44,158 nt of DNA from Promethearchaeota archaeon (GCA_048938385.1 JBHLMG010000004.1:57084-101241), one strand, 5' to 3'. Shown: positions 1,323 through 37,998, numbered from the stretch's first letter. The notes: generated from the letters alone by a model not told the origin. Program-made: numbers and translations.

Positions 1323-2102
1323 ATGGCGGATAAATTCGTGTTACTATTAGAATTCTCTTCGGGTATTATCGAACCCCTTCCTCTCTCAACCGAAGCCCTA
1401 GCAACTGATCGAATCATTATAGCCATCGATGAACTCAAAGAGAAGGTCTGGCTTTGGCAAGGTGCAGCCACTTCTCTCGTTGAACGCCGCGCCGCTCAAC
1501 GAAAAGCTCGCTCCATTTTGAGTGCAGGTTATCAGTTAGGTCCTTACAGAATAGGACGAGATGTCTCCGATGTCGAAATCATTGAGGGCGATTTCCTGGA
1601 TGATCCTGAAACTAAAGCGCTCTTTGCACAATTGCAACACACTCTCAGCCAGAAATTTCAACTCACTAACGGGGTCCTTGGACGATTCAGTGACACTACC
1701 TCTCCCCTTCCTTCGGCTCCGACATCTACAACCAAACCTGCTTCGGTCAGCACACCTCCGCTCCCATCACCAAAGCCTCCACCACCACAGCCGTCCATCG
1801 CTACACCTCAACCCCAAACCCAACCCATAGCTCCTGCTCCACAGAGGGCTTTTCAAGATCTAGGGGTAATCCGTGTTGGAATCCTCATTGCATCTGTCCT
1901 CGACTTTTTTTCCTCTTGCTATGTCAGCACAAATCCAACAGAGACAGGAATTCGTTATACAATTGAGGATCCGGATGGAACAATTTGTGAAATTGAAGTA
2001 AGTCAAGGCTCCGTTCATTTTCTACAGCGGTATGACTTTCGAGGAAAACGCAACGAAATTCTTGCGCTGCTACGGGATCGGTTATCCACTGCTAATTTAT
2101 GA
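1323..2102 (+). CDS. Gelsolin-domain protein 1 (gelsolin domain, Pro-rich linker, unnamed C-terminal alpha/beta domain)
   Basis: LATDRIIIAIDELKEKVWLWQGAATSLVERRAAQRKA fits the gelsolin-repeat pattern (L..D..h-h-h-D.....h-W-x-W-x-G......ER..A). Linker PPLPSPKPPPPQP. GGGAG SD upstream. Confidence 0.8.
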   Translation: MADKFVLLLEFSSGIIEPLPLSTEALATDRIIIAIDELKEKVWLWQGAATSLVERRAAQRKARSILSAGYQLGPYRIGRDVSDVEIIEGDFLDDPETKALFAQLQHTLSQKFQLTNGVLGRFSDTTSPLPSAPTSTTKPASVSTPPLPSPKPPPPQPSIATPQPQTQPIAPAPQRAFQDLGVIRVGILIASVLDFFSSCYVSTNPTETGIRYTIEDPDGTICEIEVSQGSVHFLQRYDFRGKRNEILALLRDRLSTANL

Positions 2103-2191
2103 AAGCACTAGCGACCAATATTTTTTGCAGGAATTTAATCAGATACTCCGCTAATACCTCAAGCAGAGTCAACTTAATAAAAGATAGAAAC

Positions 2192-2319
2192 ACAACCTAA
2201 AACAGACCTCGCAGCACTAAATGCCTGTGAAGCTGTGAGGAAATCGCGCTACAGACATACCACACAGCCCACCCTTGAAGTCACTGGGTTCTACCCTCAG
2301 GGATCTGAATAGGTGTTGT
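2192..2319 (+). promoter_or_regulatory. Candidate structured 5' leader of gelsolin protein 2
   Basis: Nested complementary segments: 2207-2215/2232-2240 (9 bp including one G-U), 2203-2206/2304-2307, 2286-2289/2293-2296, and 2192-2199/2310-2319 covering the SD. Confidence 0.3.
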
Positions 2320-2323
2320 AAAG

Positions 2324-3049
2324 ATGGCACGACTAGTAATGTTAGAAATTGGTGGTTTAGGTTTTGTTCGTTCTATACGCCCGGGTGCACGAAAGCTCAG
2401 CGGCGATGTGTGCGTAGTCGTCGCTGATGAAGTGAACAAAACTCTCTGGTTCTGGATGGGAAGCGGCGTTCAATATGATAAGCGTCGAACTGCTAGAGGT
2501 AAAGCTGAGCAGATTAGTCAAGAAGGGCATCGTATTGGTGATGAACTGCTCGGTCGCGGCTTCTCTCTTGTAGAAATCGATCAAGATGCCTTAGAAGATC
2601 CTACCACTGCAAATAATTATTCAACCCTAACAGGTCTACTCGAAGCTCCAATGGAAATTAGTACTGTGACGAGCTCCAAAGGAACTCTCATCATCGCCCA
2701 ACTCCAAGGCACCGCTCCTACCACACCTCCTATTACTCCTACTACCACAGCTGTAACCACGCCTGAACCGAGTGTAAAAGAAACCAAACCTTCGGCTCAG
2801 ATTACTACCCCTCGGAGATCGAAGCTCGACTTTGAAGCCGCCTTAATGGCCATCGTCCGTGTACACCAACAAGTTCATATCGAATACAAAACTCGCGGTG
2901 ACACAGAAGAAGTAATCATTGAGAGCATCGATGGATTACAACACAAAATGAAACGCAGCAAGGGTCGGCTTTCCTTCAACTGGGATCCTAAAACACCAAA
3001 AGAACTCAAAGAACTTGTCGCTCACGAACTCAAAAGTATCGCGGGGTAA
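2324..3049 (+). CDS. Gelsolin-domain protein 2 (paralog of 1323..2102, Thr/Pro-rich linker)
   Basis: LSGDVCVVVADEVNKTLWFWMGSGVQYDKRRTARGKA, with the same G...G...G segment and DDP/EDP helix as paralog 1. AGGTG SD upstream. Confidence 0.8.
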   Translation: MARLVMLEIGGLGFVRSIRPGARKLSGDVCVVVADEVNKTLWFWMGSGVQYDKRRTARGKAEQISQEGHRIGDELLGRGFSLVEIDQDALEDPTTANNYSTLTGLLEAPMEISTVTSSKGTLIIAQLQGTAPTTPPITPTTTAVTTPEPSVKETKPSAQITTPRRSKLDFEAALMAIVRVHQQVHIEYKTRGDTEEVIIESIDGLQHKMKRSKGRLSFNWDPKTPKELKELVAHELKSIAG

Positions 3050-3074
3050 TCTCTAAAATCACGGGTCGGAATCT

Positions 3075-3662
3075 ATGGTTCTTTTCTTGTTTTTTGCCCT
3101 AGCACTGATTAGTTCATATGCTTTCATCGGTGCTGGCATAAAGTACATCGATCAAATCGTCGATCATCAACGAAATTCACGAAAAAATTCATTGAGCTCT
3201 TGGCTACTTACCTTCTGCCTTACTCTGGTAACATCTCTCTGGGTCTTTTTAGATCGCTTTTCTGCAATCCTCGCATTCGCTTTAATTCTAGGCTTACTCG
3301 GGACGCGAAAAGTTGACAATCATTACTTTATTGTAATCGCCTTGGTGGTTCTTCCTGCGTGCGTCATAACCTTAGTTCAGGTTAATCTTTTTATTCTCCT
3401 CGCAAGTCTGCTCCCTCTTATTGTATCAGCCATTGCGGATGAGCTTTTACACAATACGGCATTGAAGATCACGAATAGATATGTCCAATGGGTTTGTGTT
3501 CACCGCCCCCTGCTCAAAATAGTTGTCATAATTTTACCGTTTTTCAGTCTGCTCACATTTACTCATGCGATTGCTTTTTGGAGCTTCGACCTGGCCTATG
3601 ATTTCGTAGCTTACCATTTTCGCGCGGTAAATCTTGTAGCAAACGAAGGGCTATCTCCGTAA
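3075..3662 (+). CDS. Multi-pass membrane protein of unknown function
   Basis: About 6 hydrophobic segments with polar motifs GIKYIDQ, KVDN, ADE, HRP, FDLAY. Starts 25 bp after gelsolin 2. Confidence 0.75.
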   Translation: MVLFLFFALALISSYAFIGAGIKYIDQIVDHQRNSRKNSLSSWLLTFCLTLVTSLWVFLDRFSAILAFALILGLLGTRKVDNHYFIVIALVVLPACVITLVQVNLFILLASLLPLIVSAIADELLHNTALKITNRYVQWVCVHRPLLKIVVIILPFFSLLTFTHAIAFWSFDLAYDFVAYHFRAVNLVANEGLSP

Positions 3663-3746
3663 ATCAATGGTTTCTATCTCTGGGCATCGCTTTGGAAAGG
3701 TTTAAGTCGGCTCATTTACCAAAAATAGACACTGGTGAGGCTACAG

Positions 3747-3989
3747 ATGAGAGCCAACATTTCACTATCATATAGTGGTAGAACACGGGAGGATCATGCG
3801 ACCAAAAACGGTCATGTGAACCTTCTCTTAAATCAACATGGCCGCATCCTCAGCAAACTTCCCCTTGGCGATGGACGCTATAACTTCGTAATCGAACTCG
3901 ACGATTTAGAACGGTTTACAAATTCGTTGTTCGAATTTACTCGTCAAAACCCCTGGCTTCGTGTGGAGAAGGTGTCCGCATACGCTTAA
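3747..3989 (+). CDS. Small hypothetical protein (80 aa, possibly ferredoxin-like/ACT-like fold)
   Basis: GGTGAGG SD at 3734-3740 before ATG 3747. TATA-like TTTAAG near 3701. Alternating beta/alpha pattern. Confidence 0.6.
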   Translation: MRANISLSYSGRTREDHATKNGHVNLLLNQHGRILSKLPLGDGRYNFVIELDDLERFTNSLFEFTRQNPWLRVEKVSAYA

Positions 3990-4012
3990 GGGATTTTACT
4001 CACTAGTCTCAG

Positions 4013-5410
4013 CTAAAGGCGAACTTTTTCACCATTTTTTGGTGCTATGGCAGGGCACCTTAGGGTATGCTTTACAATTCGCACAAGTCCTTGACATGCC
4101 TTCGGACTTCCATGAACAGCAAACACCTTGTGTGGGGGTTGATTGCGAAGCGAAGAAAAGAAGCCCATCAATTCATTCTTATCAGCGTGAGCGCTGAACC
4201 CATACAGCCTTTCAATTCGTGCACGCACTCGTTTGGGTCGACCGTATATTCGTACTTGCCGTGCTCCATGAACGATACGATGTCCAAGAGTCCCAGGAGC
4301 TTGAAAACCTATTACTAAGAGATGCGTGTTGTGATCCTCAATGCGTCTGTAAAGGTGACGAAGAATCCTACCGCCACTCATCATTCCTGAACCAGCGATA
4401 ATCATCATCGGTCCGCGTTGTTGGCTCAACATGTCACTATCATTATGACGTTCAACATACTGCAGCCCCTTAAAGTCCAAAGGTGCATCTCCTGACTCAA
4501 TCAAATCCCATGTTTCATCATCAAAACATTCACGATGACGCTTAAAGATTTCAGTGGCTCTGATAGCTAACGGAGAATCAATAGCTACTGGAATAATAGG
4601 AACCCTACCCTTTTCCACCAAGGTGTTCAGGGCATAGATTAGAGCTTGAGTACGCCCAATAGCGAAGGCAGGAACAAGGATGTGGCTTTGATGACGATTT
4701 GCTTTGATAATGATGCGTTCAAAATGTTTTATGGTTCGCTTCAACGCTTCATGGGTACGGTTGGCATATGTAGATTCACAGAGCAGGTAAGGCGCGGTGG
4801 ATGGAAAATCAGGATCACGAATAATTGGGGCGTTCCTTCGTCCAATATCACCCGTATCAACCAGGTGGACGATTCTATTATCTTCTTCAATCCAGGTTTC
4901 AACGATGGATGATCCAAGGATATGTCCAGCATCACGGAAACGGAGGATAACATTTCCGGTAAGTGTAAGTTTCCGATTATACTCCACTGCCTTGAGCTGT
5001 CTAATGGCTCGTTCAGCATCCTGTACGGTGAAGAGTGGGGTTGCTTGCCGTGTATCTTGGGGGGATCCTTGTTTGGAATGGTGCCGAGTAGCCTCTTCCT
5101 CTTCGGATTCCCCAACATCTCGCAGTAATAGGGTACAGAGTTCAGCACTGGCACTGGTCGTATATATGGGTCCACGGAATCCGGCTTTCACCAACATTGG
5201 TAATCGTCCACAATGATCGAGATGGGCGTGGGTGAGGATGACAAAGTCGATGCCTTTAGGATTGAAACTGAAAAGATGGTTTCGCTGATACTGGCCTTCT
5301 GAACTTCCCTGGAAAAGACCACAATCAAGTAGAAATGAGGTAGTTTTTGTGGTTATCTGGAATAAACTTCCCGTAACGGTTTGTCCTGCGCCGTGAACGG
5401 TTAATTCCAA
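4013..5410 (-). CDS. beta-CASP metallo-beta-lactamase ribonuclease (bacterial TTHA0252-like type)
   Basis: GAGQTVTGS, DCGLFQG, THAHLDHCG, DAGHILGS, ESTY, PAFAIGRTQ, GFSAHAD, VHG. Confidence 0.9.
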   Translation of the reverse strand: MELTVHGAGQTVTGSLFQITTKTTSFLLDCGLFQGSSEGQYQRNHLFSFNPKGIDFVILTHAHLDHCGRLPMLVKAGFRGPIYTTSASAELCTLLLRDVGESEEEEATRHHSKQGSPQDTRQATPLFTVQDAERAIRQLKAVEYNRKLTLTGNVILRFRDAGHILGSSIVETWIEEDNRIVHLVDTGDIGRRNAPIIRDPDFPSTAPYLLCESTYANRTHEALKRTIKHFERIIIKANRHQSHILVPAFAIGRTQALIYALNTLVEKGRVPIIPVAIDSPLAIRATEIFKRHRECFDDETWDLIESGDAPLDFKGLQYVERHNDSDMLSQQRGPMMIIAGSGMMSGGRILRHLYRRIEDHNTHLLVIGFQAPGTLGHRIVHGARQVRIYGRPKRVRARIERLYGFSAHADKNELMGFFSSLRNQPPHKVFAVHGSPKACQGLVRIVKHTLRCPAIAPKNGEKVRL

Positions 5411-5465
5411 TACAAGTAACTCCTACAGACCAGTTAACAAAAGCGGTTGAGGAAGCGGTCATGGA

Positions 5466-6428
5466 TTATTCAAACCAATCGTATCCCGGGTTTCCGCTTT
5501 TATCCTTGGGGTTGTCCTTCTCTTCTTCTTGGTCTGAGTTCTCTAAGGGTTCAGTGTCTTCTGTTTTAGGTTCCTCTTCTTCGGGTTTTGCTTGCGTTCC
5601 AATTTTCGATAATTGTTGCCGCATTGAGTCAACAACTGAAACAGATTTGCCCTCCTTCAGCTGGGAAGCTTCGCTTAATGCCTCAGGAGACCCGATGTAT
5701 TGTTGTCCTTCACCTGTGAGTTGGGGTTGTTGACCATAACAACGAGCAAAGGCTGCAACATCCTCATGGTCAGTGGCGCGAATTTCAGTGAATAAGATGT
5801 CATCACCCTGACAAATAAATCGAAGCTGGAGACGAAATACGGATACTTGGAATTCGTTTGGTCCCAGAGGAACCATTGTGGCTTGACCGTAGCAGTCTGC
5901 TACTGCGAAAAGTACCTTACTTGCAAGCTGCTCTTCATAAGTTAGGATTCTGCGACGGACGGTCCTCGGCTCACGAATCGGTTGTGGGACGATAGTCTGT
6001 TCGACAGCGTCAACTCGGTCTTGGAAGGACTCCTCAAAGGTGGATATTTCTGGTTCCTCTTCAATCACAACGAGGAACTCGGATGTTTTATGGTTTGATT
6101 CAAGGAGCTTTCGAAGGACGGAAACTTTTGCATCTTGAAGGTTGCCTGGAACTTCGATGAAATTAGTACATTTGGTTCCTACCTGAATACCTTGTACATG
6201 AATTCCATTGCGCATAATAAATCGCGCTTGTCGTAAAGCGTTTGACCGTTGAAGCATGGTAGTACCATGACCCATCCAGACCCAGACGATGGCTTCAGCT
6301 TCGTCAACGATAAGAATCGTTCGTCCGTCCACTAAGTGGCTGGGGTTCCAATGCAGGGGTTGTAGTTCACCTCCTTCGCCTAAGACTTCGATCATCGCGA
6401 TGTATTTTTTCATCTTCTTCCGAACCAC
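5466..6428 (-). CDS. Gelsolin-domain protein 3 (acidic C-terminal tail ending YDWFE)
   Basis: HLVDGRTILIVDEAEAIVWVWMGHGTTMLQRSNALRQARFI plus GIHVQGIQVG. C-terminal helix-4beta-helix domain like paralogs 1 and 2. Confidence 0.75.
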   Translation of the reverse strand: MVRKKMKKYIAMIEVLGEGGELQPLHWNPSHLVDGRTILIVDEAEAIVWVWMGHGTTMLQRSNALRQARFIMRNGIHVQGIQVGTKCTNFIEVPGNLQDAKVSVLRKLLESNHKTSEFLVVIEEEPEISTFEESFQDRVDAVEQTIVPQPIREPRTVRRRILTYEEQLASKVLFAVADCYGQATMVPLGPNEFQVSVFRLQLRFICQGDDILFTEIRATDHEDVAAFARCYGQQPQLTGEGQQYIGSPEALSEASQLKEGKSVSVVDSMRQQLSKIGTQAKPEEEEPKTEDTEPLENSDQEEEKDNPKDKSGNPGYDWFE

Positions 6429-7886: not shown

Positions 7887-8396
7887 CTACTGTTCTCGGA
7901 GTTCCCAAACGCAGGCATCTGCACCCCAGGTTCGACACTCCACTTCTTCACATACGCTGTCAAACCCTCGAAGGGTTAGTACATGCTGGAATACGCCGCT
8001 GAGAATGTTACAGTATTTCAAACCGGTGAATTCATCGGACATTCGAATATTCTGACAGATAGGACAGTCATTAAATTTATACACAATTTTCTTACCAGCA
8101 GTATCATATTGAACCTCATCAAATGCCTGGCCCAACATGACTCGCGTGGCTAAGGTAAAGGTGTCTGTAAATCCATCAAATGTCGTGGCGTGTTTCCCAA
8201 TTGTATCGCTGTATTCGAAAAGGAGAGTTTCAGCCATAGCCATGCCTAACCGTAACAGTTTGCTATTCGCTAGATTAATATCGCCTTTACTATCTTCGAT
8301 GATGTAGTCAATAACTGCAGCTACCAATGCCTGGAAGGCATTTAGGGATGTCTTCTTCATCTTAAAATGCCAGCCAACCCAACCTTTGACACCCAT
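7887..8396 (-). CDS. Standalone V4R (4-vinyl reductase; Bet3/TRAPP-related fold) domain protein
   Basis: L.R.G..MA helix, CPIC, YCNILSGVF, EVECRTWGADACVW. GTGGTGA SD upstream. Confidence 0.85.
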   Translation of the reverse strand: MGVKGWVGWHFKMKKTSLNAFQALVAAVIDYIIEDSKGDINLANSKLLRLGMAMAETLLFEYSDTIGKHATTFDGFTDTFTLATRVMLGQAFDEVQYDTAGKKIVYKFNDCPICQNIRMSDEFTGLKYCNILSGVFQHVLTLRGFDSVCEEVECRTWGADACVWELREQ

Positions 8397-8462
8397 ATTT
8401 TATCACCACAAGTTCGTACATGTGTCGATATAGTTATGAATTATTCGTTCTTTACTTCGTTT

Positions 8463-8942
8463 CTAGACTCGCTTTTCGAAATCCACAAGTTCCCGTTTTT
8501 GAAGATCTAAAAGCATTCGCATTGCAATGAAAAACTGTAATCCCATCTTTTCTGCGATCTCTTGCAGTGTTGTTTTTCCATCACAAAGACTGAGCATTCG
8601 AAACTCAGTGATTGAAAGCTTTTGTTTATCTAAATCAGCAACAATCCGCGGAACGATTCTACGGCTTTTTACACCAACCATCGGGGTCGGTGGTGCTGAA
8701 CTAGTAGCTGCATTCGTGGGGGGTTGTGGAGCCTCCATCTGAGTTCCCGCATGAATCTCTGACACTTCGTGACCCCGTTCAACCAGGTCTTGGTCTAAGT
8801 AGATTGTGATAACATGTGCAGGGTCGCCGTGAACATACGAGTAAGGAAAGGGAAACACATTTTGTCTCCTGATAATATCTGGTGGGACATCTATGGCGAT
8901 GTATGCCTTACAATTTTCACAGTAAGTGTAAACGACAGGCAT
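8463..8942 (-). CDS. Hypothetical protein: N-terminal CxxC/His Zn-ribbon-like domain, P/A/T linker, C-terminal winged helix
   Basis: YCENCK...YVHGDPAH...YLD...RG; LSITEFRMLSLCDGKTTLQEIAEKMGL...LQKRELV. Confidence 0.75.
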   Translation of the reverse strand: MPVVYTYCENCKAYIAIDVPPDIIRRQNVFPFPYSYVHGDPAHVITIYLDQDLVERGHEVSEIHAGTQMEAPQPPTNAATSSAPPTPMVGVKSRRIVPRIVADLDKQKLSITEFRMLSLCDGKTTLQEIAEKMGLQFFIAMRMLLDLQKRELVDFEKRV

Positions 8943-28845: not shown

Positions 28846-31800
28846 ATGCGACTAAAGCATTTTATTCTTGGATTATTCCTGATATTTTTCCTACTCGAAT
28901 TTACAGTTCCCACTATTACTCTTCCCGAATATCTCCCAACTCCCAATGAGTCAATCTCTACAGCATCCATTTTTACTTCAACTCAAACTAATCCCTCCCC
29001 TGGTCTTATTGTTCGACCCTCAGAAGATGCCATTCCACCTCTTCCCGATAACCCCCTTGGAACAGGGAGGGAAACCCTGGTCGAATGGTGGGATACCAAT
29101 TACGATTATCGACGCAAAATCACCATAGTTGAACCCAACATCGCATCCCGATCCATGGAACCGGTCCACATCTACATGACCTTCACCGGTGATGTTGCTA
29201 AAGAAGGAATCATCGCTGTCGCCTATTGGGATCTTGCAACTTGGCATGAAGTTCCATCACAAGTCTGGAACGCGACGACCCACACTACAGGACCTACGAC
29301 CTACTATGATTCTTGCACGGTTTGTATTCTCGTCAATATCACAAAAAATTACCAAGAAGTCTTCTACATCTACTACGATGACTCCTATACAACAGCTCCA
29401 AGCTATACTGACTACATCACGGCCATAGCTGATAATGGCCCAATCACCGATGATACGACAATGCCATGGGTTTACTCCGAAGTCACCTCTACAAATTACA
29501 CAAATGTAGACACCATCTTCATTCGGTCCTCAGCATCACAAAATGAATCCGCAGCCATTCTCCTCACCGATATGCTTCGCGGCGGCTCCGATTGGGGCGG
29601 ACCCTGCTGCGGCCTCATAGCCGCCCGTTACGGCGATGTAGACGCCTTAGACACTAACAACGGCACAGGAACAGGTACCAACCGGCAATACATGCTTCTC
29701 GGTGAATTCGCCCTCGACCCGCTTGGTCAAGACACCAGTATGGACTCTGACATAAACACTCGCGCTAATGTCGCACCCGACAACCCTGCAGAAGCCTGGG
29801 TCGCGGGTGCAGGTGTTTGGATCCTGGATGATGGTCCACTATTTACACGAATTAAAATCGTCACTAGCGATGGCGGTTATAGTAACATCAATTCGCCCTG
29901 GAGTAACCAGACCACGGATACAGTAAACCGGGGAAACAATGGCGCCACTGGATTTCTCAACTACACCATAACCTATACTTTCTACTGGCATGGCAACACT
30001 CTCCTTGTCAATGTGATGCTAGATATCACAGCAAACCCCCAATGGCAGGACGCCCAATGCCATGTCAAAAACTACGGTGATTGGCCCCACATCATGACTT
30101 TTACATGTGGCTCCGGAACACCAGGTACTGTTGACGCAGTACAAAACCGAAAAGCCTGGAACGGCTCAAAATATGGGCTCTACAACGAATCCGTTGATGG
30201 CCGGCGCCGAGACTTTCCAATTGAACCATGGTTCGCTTGGTATGACGATGCCAGTGAACCCGGTTACGATGGAACACAACATCCAACATTGGGCCTTATT
30301 GCAAAGGTCAACCCGGTCGGCTGGGAAGTCCTTTCTCTCGCTGTAACCGGCATGGGCGATAACACGATGCTTCAACAAATCCTCCGTGAAGGACACCAAG
30401 GTGACTTCTTCATCATGCCAACTGGTGAGACCTTCAGTTATGATTACACCGTGTATACAAGCGCCTATGGCACAGATTATGGTGAAGTTCGTTCACAAAC
30501 CTCGCAAGTGAATAATCCTGTGAGCTTGAGCCTTGGCGAACAAGAACTATATCGGCATAACATCCTCACCTGCAAAACCCGAGATGTAGAAGACACAGCA
30601 ATTTCTAATATCTCCCTCTATATCTTCAACAGCACCCTAGATTTAGTACGAACAGGAACTACTGTTTCTGCGACCGCCCTCTTTGAGAAACTCGAAGACG
30701 ATACATATACCATCATTTCAAATTACTCCCTGCTCTCAACCTATGGAGGGCTTGTAACCTTCCGCGTCAACACAACCCAAATCACTCTAGACCATACAAT
30801 TGACCGCAACTGGACTCAACCAATAACCTGCCAATTGAGCAAAACCACAGTGCATGTCGTCGATTGGTATACCAACAACAACCTCGCCACATTCGCTGAA
30901 GTCTTCTTAGACAATGCCTCGGACAGCATGCCAATTTTCGCATTGAACGCAACCATCCCTGGAGGACTAGCTTCAACTTATCTCCTTCCAGGACAGTACG
31001 ATGTTAACATTCGATACATCAACCGCTTCCGCGTTCACAATCAAACTACTCCCTTCCAAGTGAGCAGCACTACTAGTACGCAAATTCCCATCGGCGTCGT
31101 AGCTACCGAACACGCCACCGAATTGAGCCTTGTCCGACCGAGTACCATTCCCTACATCGAAGTCGGATTCAACACCACAACTCGGTTCGTCGTCCTTTAT
31201 CGAGATCTTATCACGGGGCAACCAATCGATGGATTGGCTACACCAATTCCCTATGTGGCGAATTGGACCTTATCCAACTCAACCCACAACAACATTGACT
31301 CTGGACTCCTTACTCCAGTGGTTGGTGAGCCTGGTAACTATTCTGTGCTCTTCGATGCCACTGGGTACCTTGTTAACGAAACTTACCAACTTCGGATACT
31401 TCTCGATGTGAACGCCCCGGTCGATTATTGGCAAGCCTATATCGCCATCGGTATCCTCATTCGTGGTCGAGAAGTCCAAATAATCCCCGAGTCCACCTCA
31501 TACAGTGTCTTTTGGAACGATACGGTGAATCTAGCAGTCTATCTCAACGACACAGCCACAAACCAACCTATCCTTGGCGCTCTGCCCACCTACTTCGGTG
31601 TTGGTTTTTCAGGCTCACTCCTGCCCAACGGTACAGATGGATGGTACACAGCCGCTCTTAAAGTTGAGAACATCAATCAAGGGACTTATACCATCACCGT
31701 TCGGGCACAAATTGCAGCTTACGAAGATGCCACGACACAAATCCTACTCTATGTCGCTCCCCAACCCACCGATGCAACACTCATTGATGGATACACCAGC

Positions 31801-33090
31801 ACTCAAGATGGTCTTACGAATCGAACACTTACACGCGGGGATTGGTGGGCTCCAGCAGGTGACTTGCTCGTTTTTACTTTTAACTACACGGGTATGTACG
31901 ATCAACTCATTCTCGATGCCATTGGGCAAATTAGCTACCAAGTTGGTTTTCAGAGCCTCGAGTACCTCGGAAATGGCCTTTATCGCGTCGTCATTAACAC
32001 AACGACTATTCCTATTGGATCCTACTCGGCAGCAGTAGGCTTTTCGAAGCAGAACTTCGAAGTAGCCATCCTCAGCTTTACGATCGAAGTACGCCTCATT
32101 CCCACAGAGATTCAGCTCATCCACCCATCTCTCAATGCCAGCTACTTCGAAGGCTATGTGACCGATCTCTTACGCGTGCGCGTCAGGGTTACCGATACCT
32201 GGCACAACCTTCCCGTAACCAATGCTACCTTAGTTGTTTACCTCTCCGAATTAGGCTATCCACCCATGCTCATGTACAGCGTACCAGGACTCCCCGGAGT
32301 GTACGAACTGGGCGGAATCAACCTACTCAGAGAAGGAATCTTTGACCTCACCATCACCGCCACCGCAGACAACCACGAGCCTGTAGAATTCATCTTCCAA
32401 CTACGCATCGAAACCCACCCAGTCACACGGAACCTCATCACCTTCGGTCTCATTGCCGCCATCATCGGCATCATCATGCTGCTTGCCTGGGTTGCCTATA
32501 CACGGGTCTTCGCCATCCCCTGGCTCGTCCGCAAGATGCGAAAAATGTCCACCACCATCGGTAAAGGCAAAACACCTAAACTCTCAGGACGCGACCAAAA
32601 CCGCATCGCCACCCGACCCGACCAAATGACTGATTTTATGCAAGACGCCTATAACAACGCACGCATTTCCTTCGTAGCGTCTGCTATACCAACCATCATT
32701 GCCCTCGACGAGCGGGAAGCCGAAGAGATCGACATCTGGCGAGAACTCGATAATCTCGAAGGCCTCGGGCGCGACCAAAAACTTGAACTCTTCGAAGAAA
32801 TGAAACGCATTCCCCCCAAAGATCGCATCTGGTTCCTTGAAGACCTCAAACGCCAACTCGCAGACGGCACACGCTTCAGTCGGATCGCACTCGAGGGGAC
32901 CCCTGAAGGACTTCTCGACGAGGAAGCTGAAGCACGCGTCATTCAAGCCCGGCTTGATGCCCTTCCCGCCCTCAGCGAGCAAGAGAAGAAAGCCCTCTTC
33001 AAACAAATCAGCAGCCTCCCCCCTGAAGAACGCGAAGAAGTCTTCGAAACCCTTAAAGAACAATACGAAACCAGCGACGAAGAAGAATAA
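28846..33090 (+). CDS. Giant type-I membrane protein A (signal peptide, DUF2341-like head, Ig-like repeats, TM helix, conserved cytoplasmic helical-repeat domain)
   Basis: Hydrophobic N-terminus; WWDTNYDYRRKITI; many N-x-S/T sequons; about 95-aa beta-rich repeats; TM near 32434-32499; tail PWLVRKMR...QKLELFEEMKRIP...WFLEDLK...ADGTRF. Confidence 0.9.
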   Translation: MRLKHFILGLFLIFFLLEFTVPTITLPEYLPTPNESISTASIFTSTQTNPSPGLIVRPSEDAIPPLPDNPLGTGRETLVEWWDTNYDYRRKITIVEPNIASRSMEPVHIYMTFTGDVAKEGIIAVAYWDLATWHEVPSQVWNATTHTTGPTTYYDSCTVCILVNITKNYQEVFYIYYDDSYTTAPSYTDYITAIADNGPITDDTTMPWVYSEVTSTNYTNVDTIFIRSSASQNESAAILLTDMLRGGSDWGGPCCGLIAARYGDVDALDTNNGTGTGTNRQYMLLGEFALDPLGQDTSMDSDINTRANVAPDNPAEAWVAGAGVWILDDGPLFTRIKIVTSDGGYSNINSPWSNQTTDTVNRGNNGATGFLNYTITYTFYWHGNTLLVNVMLDITANPQWQDAQCHVKNYGDWPHIMTFTCGSGTPGTVDAVQNRKAWNGSKYGLYNESVDGRRRDFPIEPWFAWYDDASEPGYDGTQHPTLGLIAKVNPVGWEVLSLAVTGMGDNTMLQQILREGHQGDFFIMPTGETFSYDYTVYTSAYGTDYGEVRSQTSQVNNPVSLSLGEQELYRHNILTCKTRDVEDTAISNISLYIFNSTLDLVRTGTTVSATALFEKLEDDTYTIISNYSLLSTYGGLVTFRVNTTQITLDHTIDRNWTQPITCQLSKTTVHVVDWYTNNNLATFAEVFLDNASDSMPIFALNATIPGGLASTYLLPGQYDVNIRYINRFRVHNQTTPFQVSSTTSTQIPIGVVATEHATELSLVRPSTIPYIEVGFNTTTRFVVLYRDLITGQPIDGLATPIPYVANWTLSNSTHNNIDSGLLTPVVGEPGNYSVLFDATGYLVNETYQLRILLDVNAPVDYWQAYIAIGILIRGREVQIIPESTSYSVFWNDTVNLAVYLNDTATNQPILGALPTYFGVGFSGSLLPNGTDGWYTAALKVENINQGTYTITVRAQIAAYEDATTQILLYVAPQPTDATLIDGYTSTQDGLTNRTLTRGDWWAPAGDLLVFTFNYTGMYDQLILDAIGQISYQVGFQSLEYLGNGLYRVVINTTTIPIGSYSAAVGFSKQNFEVAILSFTIEVRLIPTEIQLIHPSLNASYFEGYVTDLLRVRVRVTDTWHNLPVTNATLVVYLSELGYPPMLMYSVPGLPGVYELGGINLLREGIFDLTITATADNHEPVEFIFQLRIETHPVTRNLITFGLIAAIIGIIMLLAWVAYTRVFAIPWLVRKMRKMSTTIGKGKTPKLSGRDQNRIATRPDQMTDFMQDAYNNARISFVASAIPTIIALDEREAEEIDIWRELDNLEGLGRDQKLELFEEMKRIPPKDRIWFLEDLKRQLADGTRFSRIALEGTPEGLLDEEAEARVIQARLDALPALSEQEKKALFKQISSLPPEEREEVFETLKEQYETSDEEE

Positions 33091-33181
33091 CACCGACTCT
33101 AAAGCCCCGATCCTGAGTTACCGTTTCACAACACTAGATCATTCAATACAAACTTAAAGTCTGGATTTTCCTCAAGCGTAA

Positions 33182-33203
33182 ATCTCAGGAAAGCTATTTA
33201 AAT
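33182..33203 (+). promoter_or_regulatory. Putative BRE/TATA promoter of protein B with shared ATCTCAGGAAA element
   Basis: ATCTCAGGAAAGCTATTTAAAT; the same 11-mer occurs at 37900-37910. Confidence 0.45.
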
Positions 33204-33284
33204 TCTTGAAGGTTGTTTAGCTTAGCGGCTACATCAGCCAATACCGCTCTACTCCATACTGTCAATGATGGGTGAGAACCTAGA

Positions 33285-36200
33285 ATGAAAATTCGTCCTA
33301 TAATTCTCCTTTTACTCTGTTGTATGATGTTACCTTTCCTATCACAGCCTGCCATCCCGACGGCGATTGATGCTGTGAACGCTCCAACGAGTTATACCCC
33401 AACATTCTCGAGTTCTCCCCCTTTACCCGAAAGTTCACCACTTCCCCCAAGTCCTGATTATTCAGGGTTAGGGACTGCACGCTCCGTTCATGAAGTGGCT
33501 AATCGGACTGATGCAAATCAAGCTATCCTTCTCTTCTATGATAGTGGAACTCAAACAGCAGGAACCGACTCAGCGAATGTGGTACTTCCTCCTGGCTGGA
33601 CCGGTTATCAGCTAGATTTTTGGGTCGACGACTTGTATGAAAACCGAACTTGGGCCTTAAACCCGAGCTTCAACGGTGGAACCACATATTGGACTAGTGG
33701 ATACGATGACCTCGGAGGGACCAACACCTTCGCACAGACATGGCAAAGCGGAGGGCCTGATGGCAATGGTTATGTTCGGGTCCAAGAGGATGGGCGTTGG
33801 GATGGCTCTTATTATCGTTATGATAATAATGATCGAACTTGGTGGACTCAAACCTATACAGTCCCCCGAAGTGATATTGAGTGGGTAGGAATCAAGCTCG
33901 ATTATCGAGTTGATAGTGCTTGGGGGAGTAACGCTCTTTTCAATGTCTATATCCGTATTAACGGCACCCAAGTTTGGGCAAAAGGCTTTCAATCTGTCGG
34001 AGACACTAACTGGCATAATAGTGACTTCCTGGAACTTGATTCTGGGCTCTTTGATATTCCGAACAGCGCCATTGAACTCGAAATTGGCATGTTCTCCACC
34101 ATGAGTGTGGGTTACAGCTCAAACAATTGGATGCGTGTAGAATTTGACAATGTTTGGCTTTATATGAAGACAAAAGTTTATCCCACGGAAATTAACCTCC
34201 AAATGAATGGGTTAGCAGTTGAAAATCAGGTCAGTCGGGGTTCGGGCTTTGTCCGCCAGATTCCTACCAGTGTTTGGACGACCTCACCTGTAGTTTCCAA
34301 CCTGGTTTGGGCACCTACCACCAATCCGCCTGATCCCGATCTTGATATCGCAGTGACAGGTGTCTGTGACCTCAACCTCTTTGCCAACAAAACAGCATCT
34401 ACTCTCTACGCGCAGAGCCCAAGTGCCATTGGCGTTGGATTCATGGCAAGCAATGGGCAAAACACAACTTGGACCTTCTTTTATCAATTAGCTCTCCCAT
34501 CCCAATATTGGAACGATGTCTTTAACTTCACCATTCCAAGCGACTGGAATATTACCTTCGTATCGGAACCCCAGTTGCCTACAATCAATAAGGTTGGTCT
34601 GTGTTTCGGAGGAAATCTTGGTGATGGTTATATCAGCATTCCGGCAACCGACATCACAGTAAGCCCTGATGGCTACTGGATGATTCAGGCAGAATCCCAT
34701 AACTATGTTGATGCCGCAGAATTACAAATCTTCGATGGTGGGTGGACTCCCACATCATCAATCCGAGCTGGAAACACCACTCGAGTTGCAGCACGCATCT
34801 TAGATGGAACAGATACGCCACCTGTCGGAATAACCGGGACAGAAGCAAATGTCTCTATTTTTGAACCAGGTGGGGGGTTGTGGTACAGTGAGCTTGTTAC
34901 CCCAAACGCTCAAGGTTGGGTCTATACCTCCAGTTTCTACCATGATGGCTGGAATACAACCGGTGGAACCTACAACATATTTGTCAACTGGGATAACGCA
35001 ACGGAAGCAGGTGAGTTCTGGCTCTCTTATACCATGGAACATTCTACATCCCTTACCCCGCGCGAACCCTTAATTGAAGCGTTCTTAGAAAATCAACCGC
35101 TTTACCCGAAGGTTCGTTATGAGGATTCTGATAGCCATTCCTGGTTAGAGCCTCCCGCCACGGTTGTGGGTAACTGGACAACGGGTACGATCACTTTTCA
35201 CTATGTATCCGGAACAGGATACTATGAAGCCGAAATCAATGCCCAAGATCCTGGAACGGTTGGACAATTTTGGATCCGTGTGAACGCGAGTAAAAATCAC
35301 TATGACGACGCTTCTTGCTTTATTTTAATTGATATCGTCTCAGAAACAGATGTTGAATCGCCTCAAGTGGGCGGTGTTGAAGTTCCTTGGCGAGGCAATA
35401 CTACCGTCGCAGTGCATTATACGCAAAAAATTGGGGGCGGGGTTCTGGGTGCAACCATCGCTTGCAACTGGACGAGTGGATTTTATACAATTACTGAGGG
35501 AACGGATGGCTGGTATTACATCGAACTCAACAGTAGCGGACCCGGTGCGATCGGCACATACATGATGAATGTTACCCTCTACAAAGAACGCTACCAACGC
35601 CAACAAATTCGAATCCCGGTCTTCGTGACCCCCATGACCCTCATCATCACCACGACTGTTGGTGAACCTGTCAATGTGACCTACGGCGAACAATTCTGGG
35701 TCGAAGTCTATGTAGAGAACTTTCTTGGCGAACCTTTCGATGAAGCTAATGTCTCATTCTCCTGGACCGGTGGCACTCTCTATAATAACACCGGGGTGAA
35801 CGCCTACTTTGGGGTCTGGCTAAATTCCTCTAAAGGAAGCATCGGCATCCACTATCTCACCGTCTATGTGACCGGACCTAATGTGATACCTAGCGTCAAA
35901 GCCATCCTCATACATGTAAAACAGATAGGCAGCATCCTTGACACAGTTCCCACCGGCGAGTATAGCCTTACCTTCATCCAAGGGGAAACTTTCAGAATCT
36001 CTGTCAATTATTCCACTATCTATGGTGATCCCGTTGAACTCGCCACGGTCACCTACTTGGTGGGCACCCTTAGCGGCTCCTTCATTGAGATTGGCAACGG
36101 TATCTACAATGTCACTATTGATACCACAACCTTAGTGGCTGGATCCTATACGATTTATGTCACCGCTTCATCACCGAATGTCGACTCCCAATCACGCGCC

Positions 36201-37823
36201 ATCAGCTTGATACTGACATTGATTCCTGCAGAAATCGTCCCTGAAACAGCAATTTACAACATTTACTGGGGTGACGCTTTCACTATTACCGTTTTCTTCA
36301 GAAACCTCTCTAACGATAGTGCTATTCTCGGGGCTAGTATCGAATATAGTTGGGGTCCTTTCTCTGGAACCCTCGTCGCGAACGGTACTCCTGGTTGGTA
36401 CACCTCGACCCTTCCGAGCACCGGATTCGCGGCGGGCTCAGTGTATGTTGCTACCTTGACTGCTAACGAACCGCACTTCCAGTTCGTAGTTACTACAGTA
36501 ACCGTATTCATCAATCCTCGACCAACGGACTTAGATCTCGTCGCCGCCAACATGTACTTCCCTGACACGGACGCGGTAACGCTCCTTAATATTTCAGAAC
36601 CCTGGACTGTCCCACGCAGCGACATCCTTTATCTCTACTTCAACTTCACCGACTATGAAAACGCTATCATCACCGATGGCACCGGTGTTTACAACTGGTT
36701 ATACGGCAGTGGTGTGCTCACCTACAATAATGGTTTGTACTATGCTGCCATCGACATGACTCAAATCACACCCGGTTCATACTTCCTAGATGTGACCTTC
36801 ACCCGCCAAAACTACGAAATTGCCCAGGTTACCCAACTTCCCTTAACCATCACATTAGTTCGAACAGAAATCCGTCTTGAAATCGAAGGAGGAACCTATT
36901 ACGGTTTTACCGGAGATCCTTTGGTCTTCGGCCTCATTCTCTGGGATTTAGATCACAACATCTCCATTGATTTCGCTAATATCAGCGTGTTCATCCAAGG
37001 GTTTACCCCCGATGAGGGTATTCGCTTGACCAATCACCACAATGGATTATACACCTTTGACGGCTTCATCAGCTTCCCCTTTGAGGCCACCTACATTATC
37101 GAAATCACAGCCGAAAGCGGTTTGGTCTATCAGATTACCTCACTTAATATGCCGGCTGTCATCACCTTACACCCCATCGTCCAACAAGGTCTTCGATACG
37201 GGCTCATCGCCGCAATTCTCGGCATCCTCCTCCTCGGTGCATGGGTGGCGTATTCCCGGGTCTTTTCCATCCCCTGGCTTGTCCGCAAAATGCGGGGAAT
37301 GTCGAAAACGATTGGTCAAGGAAAAACACCGCACCTTTCGAACCGTGATGTCAATCGGATCTCTACACGCCCTGAATCTATGGAAACCATCGCTGATTCC
37401 GCCTACCGCTCGATTGGCGTTACCGTTGCTGCAACCATGGTGCCTGCAGCCGTCACCATAGAAGAACGCCAAGCCGAAGACGAACTCATCTGGCGAGAAC
37501 TAGAAAAACTCGAAGGCCTGGGCCACGACCAAAAACTCGAACTCTTCGAAGAAATGAAACGCATCCCCGCCAAGGACCGCGTCTGGTTCCTCGAAGACCT
37601 GAAAGAACAAATGGCTGATGGCACCCGCTTTGGTCGCCTCCGCGCTGAACCTACACCGGTTCCCGAAGGCGTCGATCCCAGTGTCCACGCCCGACTCCAA
37701 TCCCTCGACGCCCTTGGACCAGCTGAAAAACAAGCCGTCGTGGAACAGCTCCGCGGGCTCTCTAAAGAAGAACAAGAAGAGGTTATCAAAGCCCTCGAAG
37801 ACACCGAACGCCAAGCCGGTTAA
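33285..37823 (+). CDS. Giant type-I membrane protein B (signal peptide, CBM/jelly-roll-like head, Ig-like repeats, TM helix, same cytoplasmic domain)
   Basis: 1512 aa; NPSFNGG...FDNVWL head; repeats V.WG..h.h.V.Y......I.GA.V...W....G.G.Y; GGGTGAG SD; conserved tail. Confidence 0.9.
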   Translation: MKIRPIILLLLCCMMLPFLSQPAIPTAIDAVNAPTSYTPTFSSSPPLPESSPLPPSPDYSGLGTARSVHEVANRTDANQAILLFYDSGTQTAGTDSANVVLPPGWTGYQLDFWVDDLYENRTWALNPSFNGGTTYWTSGYDDLGGTNTFAQTWQSGGPDGNGYVRVQEDGRWDGSYYRYDNNDRTWWTQTYTVPRSDIEWVGIKLDYRVDSAWGSNALFNVYIRINGTQVWAKGFQSVGDTNWHNSDFLELDSGLFDIPNSAIELEIGMFSTMSVGYSSNNWMRVEFDNVWLYMKTKVYPTEINLQMNGLAVENQVSRGSGFVRQIPTSVWTTSPVVSNLVWAPTTNPPDPDLDIAVTGVCDLNLFANKTASTLYAQSPSAIGVGFMASNGQNTTWTFFYQLALPSQYWNDVFNFTIPSDWNITFVSEPQLPTINKVGLCFGGNLGDGYISIPATDITVSPDGYWMIQAESHNYVDAAELQIFDGGWTPTSSIRAGNTTRVAARILDGTDTPPVGITGTEANVSIFEPGGGLWYSELVTPNAQGWVYTSSFYHDGWNTTGGTYNIFVNWDNATEAGEFWLSYTMEHSTSLTPREPLIEAFLENQPLYPKVRYEDSDSHSWLEPPATVVGNWTTGTITFHYVSGTGYYEAEINAQDPGTVGQFWIRVNASKNHYDDASCFILIDIVSETDVESPQVGGVEVPWRGNTTVAVHYTQKIGGGVLGATIACNWTSGFYTITEGTDGWYYIELNSSGPGAIGTYMMNVTLYKERYQRQQIRIPVFVTPMTLIITTTVGEPVNVTYGEQFWVEVYVENFLGEPFDEANVSFSWTGGTLYNNTGVNAYFGVWLNSSKGSIGIHYLTVYVTGPNVIPSVKAILIHVKQIGSILDTVPTGEYSLTFIQGETFRISVNYSTIYGDPVELATVTYLVGTLSGSFIEIGNGIYNVTIDTTTLVAGSYTIYVTASSPNVDSQSRAISLILTLIPAEIVPETAIYNIYWGDAFTITVFFRNLSNDSAILGASIEYSWGPFSGTLVANGTPGWYTSTLPSTGFAAGSVYVATLTANEPHFQFVVTTVTVFINPRPTDLDLVAANMYFPDTDAVTLLNISEPWTVPRSDILYLYFNFTDYENAIITDGTGVYNWLYGSGVLTYNNGLYYAAIDMTQITPGSYFLDVTFTRQNYEIAQVTQLPLTITLVRTEIRLEIEGGTYYGFTGDPLVFGLILWDLDHNISIDFANISVFIQGFTPDEGIRLTNHHNGLYTFDGFISFPFEATYIIEITAESGLVYQITSLNMPAVITLHPIVQQGLRYGLIAAILGILLLGAWVAYSRVFSIPWLVRKMRGMSKTIGQGKTPHLSNRDVNRISTRPESMETIADSAYRSIGVTVAATMVPAAVTIEERQAEDELIWRELEKLEGLGHDQKLELFEEMKRIPAKDRVWFLEDLKEQMADGTRFGRLRAEPTPVPEGVDPSVHARLQSLDALGPAEKQAVVEQLRGLSKEEQEEVIKALEDTERQAG

Positions 37824-37835
37824 CGCTAGCACTTA

Positions 37836-37867
37836 GGGGCACAGCCTGTGCCCCCTATGCCCTTTTT
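37836..37867 (+). terminator. Hairpin plus T-tract terminator after protein B
   Basis: GGGGCACA-GCC-TGTGCCCC 8-bp stem followed by GCCCTTTTT. Confidence 0.55.
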
Positions 37868-37899
37868 GGCATTTCTTAATGTTTTTTCATTAAATAAAC

Positions 37900-37923
37900 A
37901 TCTCAGGAAAAACTGATAAATAC
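37900..37923 (+). promoter_or_regulatory. Putative BRE/TATA promoter of protein C with shared ATCTCAGGAAA element
   Basis: ATCTCAGGAAAAACTGATAAATA. Confidence 0.4.
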
Positions 37924-37998
37924 TCATCTGGGAGCTAGAAGTACTGCGGGGATACTAATCGTAGATGGTATACCAGCTTGAGAAAGTGGTGTGTTACT

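Follow-up and report, generated by a model that had tools for sequence, protein, structure and literature searches.

Why should an archaeon encode three different single-domain gelsolins within about 5 kb of one another, and do these proteins act alone or together? The question is raised by a stretch of DNA of 44,158 nucleotides from Promethearchaeota archaeon (GCA_048938385.1, JBHLMG010000004.1:57084-101241), referred to here as the window, which belongs to contig C24 of a metagenome-assembled Asgard genome (2.48 Mb, approximately 90% complete). Three open reading frames (ORFs) are present between positions 1323 and 6428, as an earlier note on this sequence had claimed: g1 (P0001; 1323-2102, + strand, 259 amino acids), g2 (P0002; 2324-3049, + strand, 241 amino acids) and g3 (P0003; 5466-6428, - strand), which has 320 amino acids when read from a GTG codon and 315 (P0125) when read from the start used in the databases, M6 at position 6413. 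We lean slightly towards the reading that g1 and g2 represent an Asgard-wide gelsolin clade whose C-terminal domain (C-domain) pairs the two proteins for the regulation of actin, whereas g3 would work with another partner.

All three proteins have the same general layout. About 60 full-length orthologs were found for each of them, with identities of 43-81% (51-78% in the case of g1), and these are labelled as Promethearchaeota, Thor-, Hermod- or Odinarchaeota and are all annotated as 'hypothetical'. Each of the three ortholog alignments consists of two conserved modules with a variable low-complexity linker between them. The linker is Pro-rich in g1 and Thr/Pro-rich in g2, whereas g3 has a helix between its two domains, and in the AlphaFold2 (AF2) model of g1 (predicted local distance difference test, pLDDT, 81) it is disordered (pLDDT <50), in keeping with the linker that the earlier note had described.

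The N-terminal domain

The first ~120 residues of g1, g2 and g3 are paralogous, with BLASTP expectation values (E) of 2e-13, 2e-12 and 4e-5 for the three pairs. When the families were compared as profiles, hhalign probabilities of 99, 97.5 and 96.7% were obtained, the 99% belonging to g1 and g2. A joint profile of the three families (alignment A4) finds 31 matches in the PDB, all of which are members of the gelsolin superfamily, including villin (9e-11, the best), Loki 2DGel (1e-6) and gelsolin (1e-5). The gelsolin domain occupies 1323-1688 (+ strand, residues 1-122) in g1, residues 1-128 in g2 and 6048-6413 (- strand) in g3.

The models of g1 and g3 (pLDDT 74.5 for g3), in both of which the gelsolin domain reaches a pLDDT of ~90, lead to the same assignment. 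Among ~48,000 chains the best match of either model is Thor ProGel (7c2f_D), with a Z-score (Z) of 12.4, a root-mean-square deviation (rmsd) of 1.8 Å and 87 aligned residues for g1, and with Z 13.4, an rmsd of 1.6 Å and 88 of 88 residues aligned for g3. ProGel is followed by other Asgard and eukaryotic gelsolins (2DGel at Z 10-11.5), then by Sec23/24 (Z 8.8-9.7) and ADF/cofilins (Z 5-6.5). The top ~20 matches of each model in the wide search belong to the gelsolin superfamily or are fusions that include gelsolin G1, and the top Foldseek matches of the g1 model are all gelsolins. The N-terminal domains of all three proteins are therefore very diverged forms of the gelsolin fold, and the gelsolin repeat that had been read in each of the three ORFs is real. 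In the Pfam search g1 scored 12.4 bits (E 0.15) against PF00626, below the gathering cut-off of 21 bits, and g2 and g3 gave no PF00626 match; these misses are due to the sensitivity limit of the model and are not evidence against homology.

Two features characterize the domain. Trp43, Trp45 and Gly47 (g1 numbering) do not vary among 40 sequences of the three families and form a W-x-W-x-G motif; this WxG signature precedes the long helix, in which Arg and Ala positions are conserved across the families. The 'Gly-spaced insertion' that the earlier note had pointed out after the long helix turns out to be a β-hairpin, with strands at residues 70-72 and 75-77 in the g1 model and at 71-73 and 76-78 in the g3 model, and with Gly69 and Gly78 invariant or nearly so across the three families. 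It comprises residues 69-80 in g1 (1527-1562, + strand), residues 68-79 in g2 (2525-2560, + strand) and the segment 6171-6206 (- strand) in g3; the ProGel-like gene P0188, discussed below, lacks it.

Shorter relatives of the domain were also noticed. P0189 (L013:1429-1737, + strand, G000:C22) is an ORF of 102 amino acids with a match to the profile of the divergent gelsolins (E 6e-4). It retains the long helix and the hairpin without the W-x-W-x-G motif and is therefore a degenerate or stand-alone relative. In the ESM Atlas a Thorarchaeota cluster of 124 amino acids matches residues 1-114 of the g1 model with a template modelling (TM) score of 0.84.

The C-terminal domain

According to the earlier note all three proteins end in the same helix-4β-helix domain. 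The topology is indeed found in both models. In g1 it is formed by residues 177-256 (pLDDT >90) of a domain that spans residues 177-259 (1851-2099, + strand; pLDDT ~91), and in g3 by residues 159-226 of P0125, to which a fifth strand at 231-240 is added (5694-5939, - strand; pLDDT >90). The corresponding domain of g2 consists of residues 163-241 (2810-3046, + strand). Direct comparison of the three C-domain profiles gave an hhalign probability below 1% for every pair. Since the excised profiles did not match one another, the relationship was sought through intermediate sequences, namely the tails of the N-domain relatives: a profile seeded with the g1 C-domain was iterated against 96 C-terminal tails, all g2 and g3 family members being held out. 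The profile grew to 54 of the 96 tails (57 once g2 members are counted) and recruits g2 C-domains almost over their full length (P0115 at 4e-8, P0105 at 7e-7 and the window's P0002 at 3e-5 in the 96-tail database). Compared with the alignment of g2 C-domains, the expanded profile gives an hhalign probability of 94.4% (E 9e-8, 64 columns); with the g1 C-domain, which had seeded it, the value is 99.5%. On this sequence evidence the C-domains of g1 and g2 are homologous, linked through intermediate Asgard sequences.

The sharing of the domain does not extend demonstrably to g3. Its C-domain was never recruited by the iterated profile (E >1 in the 96 tails), and against the g1/g2-type profile it reaches an hhalign probability of 1.9% (E 0.025), in a weak alignment with the correct secondary-structure register. 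The topology is similar, and a common origin with the C-domain of g1 and g2 is possible but unproven.

Searches of Pfam, NCBIfam and PDB sequences returned no match for the C-domains or for the whole proteins besides the sub-threshold gelsolin hit of g1, and the ESM Atlas search gave relatives and gelsolins alone. In the fold search, in which the C-domains were compared as parts of the full-length models, the g1 C-domain was matched by the spermine synthase N-domain and XisI-like proteins (Z 5.7), frataxin/CyaY (5.1-5.3) and RnlA NRD (5.1), and that of g3 by the IntS9/11 C-terminal domain (CTD; Z 5.2), a designed cystatin fold (5.1) and 3c6k (4.8). The same region of 3c6k_A, the spermine synthase N-domain, is thus weakly matched by both (Z 5.7 for g1 and 4.8 for g3). 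As all these values (at most 5.7 for g1 and 5.2 for g3) are below the background of the search, Z 7-8, we assign the C-domains to no fold family and make no claim of a new fold.

Distribution and descent

The N-domain profile was searched against 1.84 billion representative proteins (clusters at 50% identity) and matched 168 representative clusters at E≤1e-3, 93 of them at E≤1e-10. The relatives are mostly 200-345 amino acids long with an N-terminal gelsolin domain and carry the labels Hod-, Hel-, Frey-, Odin-, Loki-, Hermod- and Thorarchaeota; eukaryotic villins and gelsolins enter the search at about 1e-9 and weaker. g1, g2 and g3 are members of a large clade of single-gelsolin-domain proteins that extends across the Asgard archaea and lacks annotation.

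The C-domain is pan-Asgard, its profile (alignment A8) having matches in 189 of the 301 Asgard genomes sampled and in 71 of the 90 high-quality ones. Most genomes have one copy, as in 70 of 76 genomes of family f6 and 64 of 68 of family f9, and likewise in f7, f14, f18 and f23. In the family of the window, however, two copies (g1 and g2) are present in 18 of 18 genomes, arranged in tandem ~1 kb apart in every family genome among the matches listed for both. Two copies, which are not adjacent, are likewise present in f2, a family of small genomes (4 of 4). The g3 C-domain occurs in 17 of the 18 genomes of the window's family and in the window's own genome, and in none of 282 elsewhere; g1, g2 and g3 occur together in 17 of the 18. 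Free-standing copies of the C-domain were not found: there is none among the neighbours of P0205, and the 94-amino-acid frame in G296 is cut by a contig end. The distinct gelsolin architecture that had been proposed for this locus holds in so far as both domains differ from those of the published 1DGelX (see below), but it is not special to the locus, being pan-Asgard and usually present once per genome.

The descent of the three genes was examined in a quick tree of the gelsolin domain (124 columns, with support from the Shimodaira-Hasegawa-like approximate likelihood ratio test alone). g1, g2 and g3 form separate clades (support 99, 97 and 99) that are not one another's nearest neighbours. 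The clade adjoining g1 includes the Helarchaeota-labelled P0205 and P0213, and the one adjoining g2 consists of proteins of 209-224 amino acids, among them the Helarchaeota-labelled P0268; g3 is isolated on a long branch, and the branch of g2 is long too. Because g1 and g2 are placed in different clades, each with relatives from outside, their split looks older than the window's family, although the long branches make this uncertain. A recent tandem duplication of g1 and g2 within the family is not supported by this tree.

Relation to the published 1DGelX

The published 1DGelX is composed of a gelsolin domain that is 35% identical to ProGel and a domain X of unknown nature, for which I-TASSER predicted a coiled coil; it severs actin without calcium, with a dissociation constant of 7.7 µM for rabbit actin (Akil et al. 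2020, PMC7444086). In a 2025 preprint X is called a 'disordered domain of unknown function' (B35_GelX; bioRxiv 10.1101/2025.11.30.690169). The proteins described here resemble 1DGelX in combining a single gelsolin domain with a long low-complexity linker and, at the C-terminus, a part of unknown function. They differ in the gelsolin domain, which in 1DGelX is ProGel-like (33-40% identity in our searches, 35% as reported), whereas g1 is only 18-28% identical to ProGel (E 0.11 and ~28% over 53 residues against 7c2f_B; 18% in the structural alignment).

A gene of the 1DGelX type is present separately. P0188 (L012:862-1794, - strand, G000:C37) encodes 310 amino acids with a gelsolin domain that matches 7c2f_B at E 3e-10 (31 of 81 residues identical, 38%). 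When a ProGel segment of 78 residues was searched against the 301 Asgard genomes, G241 of family f6 matched it at 100%, and f6 is therefore the family of the published Thorarchaeota. Genomes of f6 have a second gene, of 300-310 amino acids, with 33-40% identity to ProGel. In three genomes of the SMTZ1-83 genus this ProGel-like gene (L022, ~302 amino acids) is orthologous to P0188 over its full length (residues 11-310 with 33-34% identity, E 6e-39). The same Thorarchaeota genus has the C-domain family in another gene of ~246-290 amino acids, which is of the divergent gelsolin type; one such protein, L020 (246 amino acids), matches the N-domain profile at 2.5e-22 and the C-domain at 1.3e-12. Both gene types are thus carried by these Thorarchaeota. 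The X regions of P0188 and L022 gave no match to the C1, C2, C3 or pan-family C-domain profiles, so the C-domain is not the published X domain, which agrees with the view of the earlier note. The g1/g2 family accordingly appears distinct from the published 1DGelX in both domains, and P0188 is the probable ortholog of the Thor 1DGelX, the published gene being identified here by its reported 35% identity and its size of ~300 amino acids rather than by accession. Members of the g1/g2 family may already be covered by the name '1DGelX' where it is applied more loosely, to Loki proteins (PMC9433394). By eye, the C-terminal region of P0188 that follows a Pro-rich linker is β-rich rather than coiled coil, and L022 ends in a Lys-rich tail.

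Predicted pairing of g1 and g2

What could the C-domain do? The C-domains of g1 and g2 were modelled as a complex, with a separate alignment for each partner, in three runs and with three controls. The median interaction prediction score from aligned errors (ipSAE) was 0.69 (runs 0.69, 0.69 and 0.76), and that of the best control was 0.00; the ipSAE mark is reached by 58 of 80 solved complexes and by 2 of 110 mismatched pairs. The runs have at least 82% of their contacts in common, with a partner pLDDT of at least 81. In the model the tightest contacts are those of residues 25-30 of chain 1 with residues 25-20 of chain 2, the two first strands lying antiparallel and the two first helices against each other, and the predicted interface corresponds to residues 179-203, helix 1 and strand 1, in g1 numbering. 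In the pan-Asgard alignment, which is independent of the complex prediction, conservation is higher at the interface positions than elsewhere in the domain (1.62 versus 1.21 bits; one-sided Mann-Whitney p=0.013), which gives modest support to the pairing. The hetero-complex through the C-domain that had been suggested for all three paralogs is thereby backed, by the model, for g1 with g2. A trio with g3 is not supported, because the g3 C-domain is not demonstrably the same domain and is confined to the window's family.

We propose that in g1 and g2 a flexible linker ties the gelsolin domain to a small αβ4α domain that would most likely act as a pairing module, the strand-1 edges of two copies joining antiparallel into a continuous sheet and the first helices packing together. 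The outcome would be a two-headed gelsolin, held together non-covalently and in this organism probably a g1-g2 heterodimer. Whether formed as a hetero- or a homodimer, such a bivalent gelsolin on flexible tethers would have the geometry for cross-linking, bundling, or cooperative severing or capping.

Actin is the likely target of the clade. The fold and the closeness to actin-bound Asgard gelsolins argue by analogy in this direction, and the same genome encodes an actin (in a gene cut by a contig end) and, elsewhere, two canonical 2DGels. Regulation of actin in vitro has been shown for Thor gelsolins (PMC7444086), and in L. ossiferum five homologs of gelsolin co-precipitate with Lokiactin (PMC13716822). 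The likely job of the two-headed gelsolin would therefore be that of other Asgard gelsolins, to bind or regulate archaeal actin. g3, a paralog restricted to the window's family, would stand apart, its own C-domain and acidic, aromatic-ended tail probably recruiting a different partner.

Alternative explanations

Several points weigh against this proposal. The complex model supports the binding of g1 and g2 by its own confidence, and in the conservation test positions buried in the core are a confounder. Close cousins of true partners also pass the ipSAE mark, so that the heterodimer may merely reflect an ancestral self-pairing; moreover, with a single C-domain copy in most Asgard lineages, the ancestral state was most simply a homodimer. 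A near-invariant Glu of the C-domain (Glu215 in g1, Glu200 in g2) is located outside the predicted interface, and the domain may hold another or an additional function. The conserved gene block spans unrelated housekeeping genes and hence does not by itself point to an operon. As to actin, structural alignments give the gelsolin domain only 15-20% identity with solved gelsolins, and the hairpin directly follows the long helix, at the place where canonical gelsolin domains touch actin in the G1-actin structures. The gelsolin-fold domains of Sec23/24, which match our models at Z 8.8-9.7, do not bind actin.

Some of these points can be assembled into different explanations. It is conceivable, and we hold it as a tentative alternative, that the C-domain is a homodimerisation module and that g1 and g2 form separate two-headed homodimers with different properties, the modelled heterodimer being an echo of ancestral self-association. 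The one copy per genome of most Asgard families and the behaviour of close cousins at the ipSAE mark would fit, as would the pseudo-symmetry of the predicted interface, to which both chains contribute the same elements; in fact, with a C-domain that usually occurs once per genome, self-pairing is at least as likely as the hetero-pairing of g1 and g2. What separate homodimers explain less well is that the tandem pair is kept in all 18 family genomes and that g1 and g2 stand in different old clades with Helarchaeota-labelled sequences beside both, which fits a long-maintained pair. Even broader would be a hetero-trimer, a 'split' multi-domain gelsolin that all three paralogs form by way of one common C-domain. 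The matching succession of secondary-structure elements in g3, its weak but correctly registered alignment (E 0.025), the 3c6k_A region matched by both C-domains and the co-occurrence of the genes in 17 of 18 genomes would speak for a trimer. However, the g3 C-domain has no significant sequence link to the others (probability <2%), g3 has an extra strand and tail motifs of its own, and its gene lies on the opposite strand between housekeeping genes. The model, furthermore, implies that the g1-g2 interface uses the single free edge, strand 1, of each domain, which leaves no equivalent site for a third copy, and we consider a trimer very improbable.

It is also rather unlikely, though less so than a trimer, that the proteins do not act on actin at all and that the diverged gelsolin fold serves, as in Sec23/24, for interactions in general, with partners in membrane trafficking or elsewhere, while the C-domain binds a ligand or partner through an invariant Glu-x-x-Asp/Glu-Gly turn. 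Such a role would agree with the Sec23/24 matches, with the sub-threshold score against the actin-type Pfam model (12.4 versus 21 bits), with the position of the best-conserved polar C-domain residue outside the predicted dimer interface, and with the presence, among the conserved neighbours, of a membrane protein and a V4R/TRAPP-like protein, and of an Arf-like GTPase further upstream. But the neighbourhood contains unrelated housekeeping genes as well, which makes it a weak context; the WxG signature and the Arg/Ala positions of the long helix are conserved; and by a clear margin the closest structures are actin-bound Asgard gelsolins (ProGel at Z 12.4-13.4 and 2DGel at Z 10-11.5). A two-headed, probably actin-directed g1-g2 gelsolin is the reading that we slightly prefer.

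Linker and tail

Outside the folded domains, g1 and g3 have peculiarities of their own. The g1 linker (1698-1850, + strand) includes a run of four prolines, and across orthologs it keeps its Pro-richness without conservation of sequence; to regard it as a profilin docking site would be pure speculation. The tail of g3 (5469-5636, - strand) is disordered in the AF2 model. In an alignment of 35 orthologs it consists of a conserved short helix, Ser-Val-Val-Asp-Ser-Met-Arg-x-Gln-Leu (5598-5636), an acidic run that varies and a conserved aromatic motif at the C-terminus (5469-5486), which is mostly Phe-Asp/Glu-Leu-Phe and in the window's copy Tyr-Asp-Trp-Phe-Glu, the near-terminal Trp being not conserved. 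From its sequence this motif looks like a short linear docking motif.

The g3 C-domain has some resemblance to the CTDs of β-CASP proteins (IntS9/11, Z 5.2; CPSF73/100, Z 4.8), and g3 is located directly upstream of a β-CASP nuclease gene (4013-5410) on the same strand; with scores below background this likeness is probably a coincidence. In the pairs IntS9/IntS11 (5V8W) and CPSF73/CPSF100 (8BA1) small α/β domains of paralogs pair with each other, which recalls the pairing proposed here. Given scores under the Z 7-8 background and no sequence similarity, this is an analogy at most and not a family assignment.

Gene neighbourhood

Synteny was compared over five loci from diverged assemblies, and the gene order is kept in all of them: an M24 peptidase, g1, sometimes an ORF of ~150 amino acids, g2, a membrane protein of 195 amino acids and an ORF of ~80 amino acids, followed on the - strand by the β-CASP nuclease, g3, HMG-CoA reductase, a V4R protein and a winged helix-turn-helix protein. 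g3 is thus opposite in strand to g1 and g2. The multi-pass membrane protein (3075-3662, + strand) begins 25 bp downstream of g2 and occupies this place in each of the five related loci, and the ~80-amino-acid ORF after it (3735-3989, + strand) keeps its position in all related loci examined; neither belongs to a Pfam or NCBIfam family.

The ORF of ~150 amino acids between g1 and g2 is found in some lineages (P0190 and P0191; L016:8914-9369 and L017:9619-10068), appears all-helical by eye and is absent from the window. The pair of V4R and winged-helix (HTH_47) proteins (7887-8942, - strand) follows downstream of HMG-CoA reductase in all loci examined, and in one ortholog the V4R protein is TRAPP-like, by a weak match. 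An Arf-like GTPase is among the conserved neighbours further upstream. At the other end of the window there are three consecutive very large ORFs (28846-44157, + strand) of 1414, 1512 and >2060 amino acids, the last running off the window end, in a region of strongly negative GC skew.

Significance for Asgard gelsolins

That Asgard archaea have proteins with a single gelsolin domain and a C-terminal extension is known. What is added here is the pan-Asgard C-domain that g1 and g2 have in common, its copy-number pattern, the separation from 1DGelX, the family-restricted C-domain of g3 and a controlled model of pairing. ProGel (7C2F, PMC7444086) is the nearest known counterpart, since it has a single domain of gelsolin/cofilin type with the WxG signature and, as the best structural match of g1 and g3, is aligned over nearly the whole chain. 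On the other hand, ProGel is a bare domain of ~90 amino acids, whereas the domains of g1 and g3 are 15-18% identical to it in structural alignments and have a β-hairpin of ~12 residues, extra C-terminal elements, a linker and a second folded domain. 2DGel (7C2G, 7C2H, 7WHF, 7WHG) brings two gelsolin domains together on actin, as a g1-g2 dimer would do, but there both domains are part of one calcium-regulated chain with a WH2-like joint, whereas here there is one domain per chain, and the chains would be joined non-covalently through a separate C-terminal domain.

The clade escapes gelsolin models and yet is present in about two-thirds of the sampled Asgard genomes, and the repertoire of candidate actin regulators is therefore undercounted. 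Its C-domain is compact, confidently folded and conserved, has no clear match among solved structures and is predicted to function in pairing. It also offers small, well-defined constructs to experimenters, which matters because the domains of the published 1DGelX could not be produced separately. If the pairing is true, valency in gelsolin-type regulators would be reachable before or beside domain duplication. We put forward, as a possibility that we hold only tentatively, that Asgard archaea build multi-headed gelsolins non-covalently, as homo- or heterodimers, by means of a dedicated pairing domain, with g3 as a third type of head that is recruited elsewhere through its tail; this would be a modular alternative to the gene-fusion route by which 2DGel and the eukaryotic gelsolins of three to six domains arose, and possibly its forerunner.

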